From Escherichia coli (GTDB lineage: Bacteria; Pseudomonadota; Gammaproteobacteria; Enterobacterales; Enterobacteriaceae): a stretch of 64,000 nucleotides of DNA. How positions within the stretch are numbered: the first letter of the stretch is position 1; every line of letters starts with the position of its first letter. A program made the position numbers. The stretch lies in the NCBI RefSeq assembly GCF_017348835.2, contig NZ_CP071375.1, one strand, 5' to 3'. Positions 1 through 3,000 of the stretch are shown one piece after another.

Positions 1-3000
1 AAGGTGTACGTCAGTTGCCTGCTGAGAGATGTCCTGCGATTGAACGAGCAACAAAAGGTGGTGTCCTGTGTGAAGAACTTCGTCCTGATGTTGATTGGAC
101 ATACTTACGACGCTCGTCATGTTATTCGCAGAATATGTCGATGAAGCAACCAAATGACGAAAACGATCATACCCGAAGCATCAAGAGGCAAATGATTCAT
201 GAAAATCAAACATGAGCACATCCGCATGGCGATGAATGCCTGGGCATATCCTGATGGTGAGAAAGTTCCGGCAGCTGGAATAACCCAGGCTTATTTTGAG
301 TTGGGTATGACGTTCCCAGAACTGTATGACGACAGCCATCCGGAAGCCCTGGCTCGCAATACCCAGAAAATTTTCCGCTGGGTAGAGAAAGACACCCCTG
401 ATGCAGTTGAAAAAATTCAGGCGTTGTTACCAGCGATCGAAAAGGCAATGCCACCTTTGCTGGTGGCCAGAATGCGCAGCCACAGTTCAGCTTATTTTCG
501 GGAGCTGGTGGAGACGCGGGAGCGACTGGTGAGAGACGCTGATGATTTTGTCGCAGTGGCAATCGCCGGTTTCAATCAGATGAACCGTGGTGGCCCGGCA
601 GGAAATGCTGTGGCAGTGCATTGAGTGATAATAGCCATATCGAATCGCTTCCGGCAACTCGTGAGTAAAAAGATTCGGTATCAGAAGAGGTGAGTATGGC
701 TAACGCCTGGCTCAGATTATGGCATGACATGCCAAATGACCCTAAGTGGCGAACAATTGCCAGGGTGTCAGGGCAGCCAATTGCAACAGTGATGGCAGTG
801 TATATCCACCTCCTGGTGAGCGCGTCACGAAATGTCACGCGAGGTCACATTGATGTCACGACAGAAGATTTGGCAAGTGCGCTCGACGTGACAGAAGAGG
901 TAATTGATTCAATTTTGCAGACGATGCAGGGGCGGGTACTTGATGGTGATTTAATCACTGGATGGGAAAAACGCCAGGTGCTTAAAGAGGACAACGGCAA
1001 TATTTCGCAAACCGCAAAATCTCCTGCAGAGCGCAAGAGGGCGCAGCGAGAGAGGGAAAGAAAGCGGGAACAAAATGGCGATTGTCACGGCGCGTCACGA
1101 AATGTCACGCACATGTCACGACGAGTCACGACAGATAAAGATACAGATAAAGATACAGATCAAGAAGATCAAAACACTATGGTCCATGGCGTAAAAAACG
1201 CCACGAACCAGGCAGGGGATGTTCAGACCGTCAACCCTGGTCAGCCAGCAGGCACGACACCGGAAGCCGATTCAGCGTATGCGCTGAAAGCCGATTCGGG
1301 CGCTGTGCAGCAGGTGATGACCGCAAGGCCGGAGCAATCACACCAACTGCAGCAGCCCGAAGCCGATTCCGCCATTCAGCGGGAAGCCGATCGGGTAGTC
1401 CCGGAAAACACCGGGCAGTCTGTGGGACGAGTGGATTATCCGGATGTGTTCGAACAGGTCTGGCGGGAATACCCGTTGCGTGCTGGGGCAAACCCGAAGA
1501 AATCCGCTTTCAGTGCCTGGAAGGCCAGATTACGCGAGGGGGTGCCACCAGAGGCCATACTGGATGGTGTGAGGCGTTACGCAAGATACCTGGCGGCTAC
1601 CGGGAAAACGGGAACGGAATTTGTTCAGCGAGCGACGACGTTTTTTGGGCCGGACCGGAATTTTGAAAACCCCTGGTTGCTCCCGGTAAGCGGCACGAAC
1701 AACCAGCGTTGTGTGAATCATATTTCTGAACCGGATACCGAAATTCCGCCGGGATTCAGGGGGGGATGTGGCATGAAAAACATTGCGGCAGCCGGGGTTC
1801 TTGAACGTATTCGCAGACTTGCACCACAGGCGTCGGTTCCACCGTACCGGACGGTGGAGGAGTGGCGGGAATGGCAACTTGTTGAAGGACGAAAACGCAG
1901 CGAGGAGATTAACCGCCAGAATCACCAGTTGCGGGTGGAAAAAATCCTGAATCGTTCGGGCATCCAGCCTCTGCACAGCAAATGCTCGTTTGCGAATTAT
2001 CAGGTGCAGAACGACGGGCAAAAATACGCGCTGAGCCAGGCCAAATCCATAGCTGACGAACTGATGACCGGGTGCACGAATTTTGTGTTCAGCGGTAAAA
2101 CCGGCACCGGGAAAAATCACCTTGCAGCGGCGATGGGTAACCGGCTGATGGCGAAGGGGCGCAGCGTGATTATTGTCACCGTGTCTGATGTCATGAGCGT
2201 GTTGCATGACAGCTACGACAACGGCAAATCCGGGGAAAAATTTTTACAGGAGCTTTGCAGTGTTGATTTGCTGGTCCTGGATGAAATAGGCGTTCAGCGG
2301 GAGACGAAAAACGAGCAGGTGGTATTACACCAGATAATTGATCGCCGGACAGCATCACTGTGCAGTGTCGGGATGTTAACAAACCTGAATCATGCCGCAA
2401 TGAGTACACTTCTTGGTGAGAGGATTATGGACCGCATGACCATGAACGGTGGTCGATGGGTGACGTTTAACTGGGATAGCTGGCGTCCAAATGTCAGCAA
2501 TATGAGGGTTGTGAAGTAATTTTGTCCGGAGGAAATTTTAATGGAAACCGTATCTGACGCACTGAAAGCACTGAAAAAAGCCTCTTCACATGTGGTGGCA
2601 GCTCGCCTTGGAATCAGTCGTGAAGAGGCTGTCAACGAGCTGTGGGAACTCAAAAGAAATGGCGTCGTTGATAAAACTGGTCACACCTGGTTTCTGGCTG
2701 GCGAAGGTGAATCCCGGGTAACCGAAGAGCGGCCAGTAAAATCTGAAGCACAGGATATGCTGACCGGGGAGGTCGAACAAAAAGTTACCGCAGACATGAT
2801 GATTGAGTTTATCGGTCAGGATGGGGCTAAAACGTGTGAGGAACTGGCGGGTAAGTTCGGTGTCAGTACTCGCAAGGTTGCTTCCACGCTGGCGGTGGTA
2901 ACCGCAACGGGGCGGCTGGCACGCGTTAATCAGAACGGTAAATTTCGTTACTGCATGCCGGGCGATAATTTACCAGCAGAGCCGAAAGCCGCGCTGGTAA

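Follow-up and report, generated by a model that had tools for sequence, protein, structure and literature searches.

Where does an induced lambdoid prophage of Escherichia coli begin its replication when its initiator gene itself contains arrays of short, evenly phased repeats? The question is raised by a stretch of 64,000 nucleotides from E. coli (assembly GCF_017348835.2, contig NZ_CP071375.1), hereafter the window, which represents a Rac-like lambdoid prophage. Near one end of the window lies a predicted replication initiator gene, named 'phage replisome organizer' by RefSeq on identical DNA, which carries two clusters of the hexamer GTCACG. A first-pass annotation of the sequence had proposed that these clusters, together with a tandem motif behind the second, form a replication origin embedded in the coding sequence, much as lambda ori lies within gene O. 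The analysis described here makes it probable that the GTCACG clusters are iterons which form the lytic origin of the prophage, and which are likely to be bound by the predicted N-terminal winged-helix domain of the gene's own product.

Probable iteron arrays within the initiator gene

The initiator gene (696-1772, plus strand; 359 codons, with an alternative GTG start at 690) runs without a stop into the gene that follows. All of the hexamers (eight GTCACG, one variant and one inverted copy) fall within codons 42-146, in keeping with the proposed position of the repeats in the 5' half of a replication open reading frame (ORF, 690/696-2519). Cluster 1 (820-864, plus strand) contains GTCACG at 824, 834 and 855 and a GTCACA variant at 844, and encodes amino acids 42-57; cluster 2 (1083-1134, plus strand) contains GTCACG at 1084, 1094, 1104, 1115 and 1125 and lies in the linker between the two domains of the protein. 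Hexamers are spaced by 10, 10 and 11 bp in cluster 1 and by 10, 10, 11 and 10 bp in cluster 2, the clusters are separated by a gap of ~260 bp, and in the output of Tandem Repeats Finder cluster 2 appears as a 10-bp array at 1083-1133. The positions and the ~10-bp phasing first described are thus confirmed, with the amendment that the fourth copy counted in cluster 1 is GTCACA. The inverted iteron, on the minus strand at 887-892 (CGTGAC on the plus strand), had escaped that description; it is conserved in loci of the GTCACG class and appears as CGTTGC in the GCAACG class.

The enrichment is pronounced. Eight plus-strand copies of GTCACG occur in 316 bp, where 0.099 would be expected from background (Poisson P(>=8) = 2e-13), and 9 of the 44 matches found on both strands of the whole window are concentrated in 310 bp. 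When the same protein was re-drawn with synonymous codons in 5000 trials, the mean number of GTCACG was 1.0 and the maximum 6, against 8 observed. Elsewhere in the 64 kb, phased copies were found just once, as a pair on the minus strand (18001/18011; 18001-18016) within a 553-amino-acid ORF at 16901-18562; as a candidate second origin this pair was set aside, since it comprises only two copies 10 bp apart and is probably due to chance. This search for a second array covered the window, beyond which the prophage may extend. No DnaA box with one mismatch or fewer was found in 1-3000, no Rfam family matched the origin region, and promoter-like matches there were at chance level only.

Measured from 696, the hexamer offsets modulo 3 are 2, 0, 1 and 0 in cluster 1 and 1, 2, 0, 2 and 0 in cluster 2; the hexamers therefore occupy all three reading frames, and the repeat unit is DNA rather than peptide. 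A 21-nt exact repeat, GCGCGTCACGAAATGTCACGC, does occur at 820-840 and again, 270 nt away, at 1090-1110, and because these two copies share a frame the peptide ASRNVT is encoded twice. The SRNVT-type peptide repeats noted at first are accordingly real as a by-product of this duplication, but they do not constitute the unit that is repeated.

Conservation of the hexamers as DNA

In a codon alignment of 21 distinct, diverged GTCACG-class sequences, synonymous codon identity at the 10 codons whose third base falls in a hexamer was 0.73-1.00 (mean 0.91), with one column at 0.53, as compared with a mean of 0.44 at 77 codons elsewhere (Mann-Whitney P = 1.5e-6). At the hexamer codons of cluster 1 the values were 0.9-1.0, with a background of ~0.4. 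Spacer codons between the hexamers remained at the background level (0.36-0.41), and the GTG codon at 888, within the inverted copy, reached 1.00. As read from this alignment, the pattern is the signature of a DNA element that overlaps coding sequence, and it provides a clear case of an overlapping DNA signal shaping a gene.

The arrays extend to phages of other hosts. Pseudomonas phage phita81A, with an N-domain of ~70% identity, has four GTCACG at the same offsets, the inverted CGTGAC and a second cluster of four followed by GATAAAGATACAG, and Aeromonas phage pAEv1818 has the same array layout. In Ralstonia phage Hennie (38% identity) the layout is retained in full, with the hexamer GCAACG in both clusters and CGTTGC inverted, the uncultured phage MW202785 has CGAACGC in both clusters, and MW202613 and cyanophage Cy-LDV1 have the second cluster only. 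In IMG/VR, where at least 577 relatives were confirmed, a sample of 140-148 non-identical related loci was analysed. The commonest hexamer of a locus averages 6.7 copies in the first 700 nt of the gene and 3.9 in the next 700 nt, and adjacent copies in 148 loci are 10 bp apart 316 times and 11 bp apart 71 times, secondary peaks lying at 20-21 and 30-31. A cluster at the relative position of cluster 2 is present in most of the related loci examined. The two-cluster layout recurs while the hexamer itself varies by lineage (GTCACG, GCAACG, GTGACG, CGAACG/GAACGC, GTAACG/TAACGC), giving an iteron unit NNN-ACG(C) whose triplet falls into the classes GTC, GCA, GTG, CGA, GGA, GTA, GAA and GAC. In 63 of 141 loci, two or more copies of the locus's own cluster-2 hexamer were present in the cluster-1 region of that locus, compared with 85 of 5466 comparisons using hexamers of other classes; since these counts ignore shared ancestry, the number of distinct classes in which the own-hexamer match between clusters is seen, at least five, is the safer measure. 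Because the hexamer occupies every frame, is conserved at synonymous sites and changes in concert in both clusters from lineage to lineage, a function at the level of DNA is indicated.

Arrays are greatly expanded in some relatives (the IMG/VR loci L107 and L118), where the first 530 nt of the gene hold 15-16 direct GTGACG and as many as 8 inverted ones. No amino-acid 'code' linking winged-helix residues to iteron class was evident by eye. In the family, nature provides a range of iteron specificities, each matched to one of a set of related winged-helix domains, which could be used to derive rules of recognition.

Linkage of the repeats to the N-terminal domain

Of the components of the replication module, the N-terminal domain alone goes with the class of repeat; neither the C-terminal domain nor the helicase partner nor the upstream regulator tracks the repeats. 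Thus phita81A, which shares only the N-domain, has GTCACG, whereas Shigella phage 75/02 Stx, which shares only the C-terminal half (65% identity), has none. On the downstream side, the window and pAEv1818 have a DnaC-like loader, phita81A has a primase/helicase, and Hennie and Cy-LDV1 have a DnaB helicase; the upstream CII-like gene belongs to phrog_163 in the window and pAEv1818 and to phrog_101 in phita81A, Hennie being without a CII-like match. Phage 75/02 Stx represents a third type of initiator with repeats of another kind, as AAGGGGCTTC occurs twice at 11-bp spacing in its N-domain coding region (L004 2181-2203) and as an inverted pair 229 nt downstream (L004 2433-2455), just before a purine-rich tract; the two pairs together make up a 23-nt inverted repeat that is 87% complementary.

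The N-terminal domain (amino acids 1-130; 696-1085, plus strand) is the presumed iteron-binding module. An AlphaFold2 model of residues 1-130, built from an input alignment of 92 sequences (predicted local distance difference test score, pLDDT, 86.8), places a beta hairpin at 78-87 behind four helices (16-25, 29-45, 56-63 and 67-77), which gives the domain a predicted winged-helix fold similar to that of the DnaD N-terminal domain. Amino acids 42-57, encoded by cluster 1, form the end of helix 29-45 and the loop that follows, a segment that is variable and gapped in the family alignment. Over its full length the protein matches PHROG family phrog_3729, 'replication initiation protein' (E 2e-257), and it matches PHROG 'replisome organizer' families at E 5.6e-6 and 2.2e-4; its C-terminal half has DnaD-like and primosomal PHROG matches. 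Scans of the initiator against Pfam and NCBIfam returned no significant match to the former and none to the latter. The Pfam family Phage_rep_org_N (PF09681) aligns end to end (residues 5-123 to positions 1-119 of 121), yet weakly, at E 0.017-0.25, and none of the 92 family members reaches E <= 0.001 to it; Phage_rep_O, the N-terminal domain of lambda O, is absent from the Pfam scan of the initiator even at E <= 10. Within the gene, AAGCCGAT occurs four times on the plus strand at 1264-1391, where 2.0 copies would be expected in the whole window. These copies are spaced by 24, 72 and 24 nt in a single reading frame, encode (E/K)AD(S/R) and have similar counterparts in 75/02 Stx; they may be repeated for the sake of the peptide or form another site in the DNA.

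The low-GC tract and the palindrome

Cluster 2 adjoins a tandem tract that is low in GC and rich in purines (1131-1177; GATC occurs at 1158 and 1167), which is a candidate DNA-unwinding element. The tandem motif that the first-pass annotation had placed after the second cluster is recovered here by Tandem Repeats Finder as ACAGATAAAGAT x2.9 at 1131-1165. The GC content of the gene reaches its minimum of 0.35-0.38 at 1111-1200 (60-nt windows), with a strong skew of A over T, against 0.52-0.63 in the flanks. The tract is bordered by a palindrome (1180-1210; arms of 13 nt at 1180-1192 and 1198-1210, loop of 5 nt), which, together with a T-rich tail, scores on the minus strand (1210-1180) as an intrinsic terminator that would act on antisense transcripts of the initiator gene, and which is retained with compensatory change in 75/02 Stx. 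The same composition is general to the family: in the 130 nt past the last iteron of 112 loci, minimum GC is 0.32 versus 0.51 in control windows and 0.60 in the gene, purine content is 0.68 versus 0.53 in controls, and perfect palindromes with a stem of at least 7 are found in 42 of 112 loci versus 36 of 448 control windows (Fisher P = 3e-13), their sequences not being conserved.

Module junctions flank the putative origin, as the match with phita81A stops once the purine tract has been passed and that with 75/02 Stx starts at the palindrome. A near-identical ACAGATAAAGATACAGATAAAGAT tract follows the iterons at 1131-1165 of the window and in three other loci (L003 2925-2945; L007 1917-1950; L006, which carries K-12 ydaU, 3100-3125). 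It is common to the window, K-12 ydaU, phita81A and pAEv1818. Its presence in initiator genes with unrelated N-domains, and in phages of different hosts, points to a sequence-specific role or else to a recombination joint that they have in common.

Genomic setting and distribution

Upstream of the initiator lies a YdaT-like gene (199-624; PHROG phrog_163, CII-like), and downstream, in frame with the initiator, a DnaC-like helicase loader (1773-2519, plus strand; NCBIfam NF009043, 507.7 bits; PHROG phrog_50). The initiator thus runs directly into the loader, giving a single ORF (690/696-2519) of 609 amino acids. The stop is lost at 1759-1775, where the window reads AGG GGG GGA TGT GGC ATG and relatives have AGG GGG TAA, a 6-nt spacer and ATG. 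The stop-less junction is found at >=99% identity in 479 E. coli records, and RefSeq labels the stop-less gene a pseudogene in strain PE164 and a 'hypothetical protein' elsewhere.

Positions 600-2600 of the window have a 100% match in the E. coli PE164 chromosome, where they lie in a Rac-like lambdoid prophage with the gene order exonuclease, dicB, racR, a helix-turn-helix gene, a YdaT-family gene, 'phage replisome organizer', 'ATP-binding protein' and DUF1627. The same segment matches 3071 E. coli records in 3062 of 5426 complete genomes, mostly of strains that produce Shiga toxin (STEC), with varying coverage, query coverage of at least 80% being reached in only 158 of the 3071 records. A probable lytic origin is in this way placed for a very common class of E. 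coli and STEC prophage, as far as relatives of the module are concerned, and its position would be useful for reading prophage induction, for understanding how replication amplifies genes nearby, and for explaining why co-resident prophages may be incompatible or exclude one another. Elsewhere in the window, a sok antitoxin RNA (Rfam RF01794, 113.5 bits) at 5170-5344 overlaps a hok/gef-type toxin ORF at 5282-5494.

Weighing of alternative explanations

At the level of sequence, the proposal of an in-gene iteron origin is supported by synonymous conservation, by concerted hexamer change, by linkage to the N-domain only and by the low-GC tract beside cluster 2. Several observations weigh on the other side. 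Fewer than three NNNACG copies are present in ~13 of 92 aligned homologs, and cluster 1 is missing in some lineages and is therefore not universally needed. The linkage of repeats to N-domain is in part unavoidable, because the site sits within the gene itself. Comparisons with initiators of proven in-gene origins gave no significant homology: the Pfam family Phage_rep_org_N reaches only the E of 0.017 given above, and hhalign against G38P, the gene 38 product of phage SPP1, yields a probability of 0.2%. In the open-access literature no paper was found that mentions these repeats, and a paper on the replication region of Stx phages makes no mention of origins or repeats (PMC8044961). Finally, this particular prophage copy might not fire, because the stop of its initiator is lost and RefSeq calls the gene a pseudogene in one genome.

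The alternative that survives best would accept the repeats as bound by the initiator, with one or both clusters serving mainly for control, either through roadblock autoregulation of the replication operon or through copy control in which arrays pair (handcuffing), as in plasmid iteron arrays, and with replication starting at cluster 2 only or elsewhere. A distance of 260 bp does separate cluster 1 from the low-GC tract, some lineages have cluster 2 but no cluster 1, the palindrome forms a terminator-like hairpin on the minus strand (1210-1180), and secondary iteron arrays of plasmids serve control. However, cluster 2 directly abuts the low-GC tract, as in proven origins, and control and initiation can coexist, a pair of roles that computation does not separate; we regard a mainly regulatory function as unlikely. 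Less credible still is the possibility that the clusters are operators for another protein, be it the CII-like/YdaT-type regulator, the RacR/YdaS switch proteins or a host factor. The YdaT-like gene directly upstream (199-624) could be the source of such a protein, and lambda CII recognises direct repeats with a 10-bp period, but phita81A has the same GTCACG arrays with a CII-like gene of phrog_101 rather than phrog_163, and Hennie keeps the layout with GCAACG and has no CII-like match. Shifts of hexamer class among related phages would, in addition, be a misfit with a conserved host factor, and the lack of a DnaA box with one mismatch or fewer in 1-3000 speaks against a host-factor operator as well. 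The least probable account, hardly tenable, is that the repeats have no function as DNA and arose by slippage or as a peptide-repeat feature, as the double ASRNVT and the low-complexity, insertion-tolerant linker might suggest, for the 10/11-bp period is not a multiple of three, the hexamer takes all frames, its synonymous sites are nearly invariant while the spacers drift, and the peptides are wholly different between iteron classes whose DNA layout is kept.

A model for initiation

Under the preferred reading, in which the clusters are iterons of an in-gene lytic origin, we infer binding, looping, melting and helicase loading in the following way. Upon induction, an early rightward transcript would supply the initiator, whose N-terminal domain would bind the iterons head to tail with about one protomer per helical turn, on four direct copies and one inverted copy at cluster 1 and on five copies at cluster 2. 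Oligomerisation, possibly with looping of the ~260 bp between the clusters, could strain the low-GC tract at 1131-1177 and lead to its melting, with the GC-rich palindrome at 1180-1210 acting as the boundary of the melted region. The C-terminal DnaD/DnaT-like domain may then recruit the neighbouring DnaC-like loader and so bring host DnaB onto the opened DNA. Cluster 1, which some lineages are without, may be part of the origin or a control array.

A broader proposal may be made more tentatively, and is as yet a possibility rather than the expected outcome: the window may hold the E. coli representative of a large undescribed family of initiators, in phages of Proteobacteria and cyanobacteria, that have a two-part in-gene origin (cluster 1, cluster 2, purine-rich unwinding tract and palindrome) and a 10-bp iteron, NNN-ACGC-NNN, whose variable triplet has been switched repeatedly and in concert at both clusters. 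As cluster 1 overlaps the codons of a structured loop in the DNA-binding domain, each change of specificity would also rewrite part of the initiator, and the family would, if this is true, provide a workable system for the joint change of initiator and origin specificity. What may be new here is that the triplet is switched in concert throughout the family and that cluster 1 coincides with codons of the DNA-binding domain itself; the accepted view of phage origin architecture is unchanged.

Comparison with known origins

A phage origin inside its own initiator gene is a known arrangement, as in lambda and SPP1, and features of the window recur in several systems. Iteron plasmids such as pPS10, F, R6K and RK2 have phased direct repeats for a winged-helix Rep protein beside an AT-rich unwinding region, and extra arrays for control. 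The window is like them in its helically phased direct repeats, its predicted winged-helix initiator and its AT-rich neighbour. The iterons of plasmids are usually 17-22 bp long and lie outside rep, and DnaA boxes are needed; the window differs in having repeats of 10-11 bp inside the gene and no DnaA box found in 1-3000.

The comparison with lambda, with which the first-pass annotation had begun, holds in its logic and fails as a statement of membership, there being no Phage_rep_O match. In lambda, the N-terminal half with the origin and the C-terminal half with the loader act as exchangeable modules, and the window family is similar in that N-half plus origin and C-half plus loader appear as separate exchangeable units. 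The likeness includes a mid-gene origin between an N-terminal half that binds the origin and a C-terminal half that engages the helicase loader, and an in-gene origin has been reported for P22 gene 18, phi80 and 933W as for lambda gene O. Lambda ori itself comprises four 18-bp dyad-symmetric iterons bound by O dimers, followed by an AT-rich region of ~39 bp (PMC6022878). The window, in contrast to these 18-19-bp dyads, has nine or ten direct repeats of 10-11 bp with a 6-7-bp core and no dyad, and it has two clusters 260 bp apart, unlike lambda ori.

The Rac prophage of K-12, with oriJ, resembles the window in prophage type and in the order racR, ydaS, ydaT, initiator and DnaC-like gene. K-12 ydaU has repeats of its own, (A/G)ATGTTCAA(ACA), unlike those of the window in sequence, beside the same AATAAAGATACAGATAAAGATC tract and a GC palindrome. 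In this locus (L006 3005-3150) the (A/G)ATGTTCAA(ACA) repeats, which include an inverted copy, are followed by AATAAAGATACAGATAAAGATC and by a CCCCCCC..GGGGG palindrome, and two further copies lie in the N-terminal coding region. As judged from its layout, which is the same as that of the window, the ydaU repeat region is a candidate for the core of oriJ. When YdaU (DUF1376) was compared with the initiator by BLASTP, only the last 19 residues and the low-complexity linker aligned, and no similarity was found between the N-domains.

The closest architectural match is oriL of SPP1, which lies inside gene 38 and consists of repeats bound by G38P with an adjacent AT-rich unwinding element, a 356-bp fragment driving replication in vitro (PMC5737612, PMC6316719). 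In the sequence of SPP1 gene 38 as read here, boxes of AAACGACA/AAAAGACA with an ACG-containing core recur at 10-12-bp phasing from +360 to +450, directly before an A-rich tandem tract of AACAATGAT x3. No equivalent of cluster 1 was found in gene 38, and SPP1 differs further in having a second origin, oriR, and its own helicase, where the window encodes a DnaC-like protein to load the host helicase and shows no other convincing array in its 64 kb. In both systems helicase-loading genes are adjacent, and 1083-1177 of the window has the same layout as oriL at the same relative position, that of cluster 2, with the origin ~360-450 nt from the start codon. The relation is thus one of working like SPP1 oriL, and not of membership in its family.

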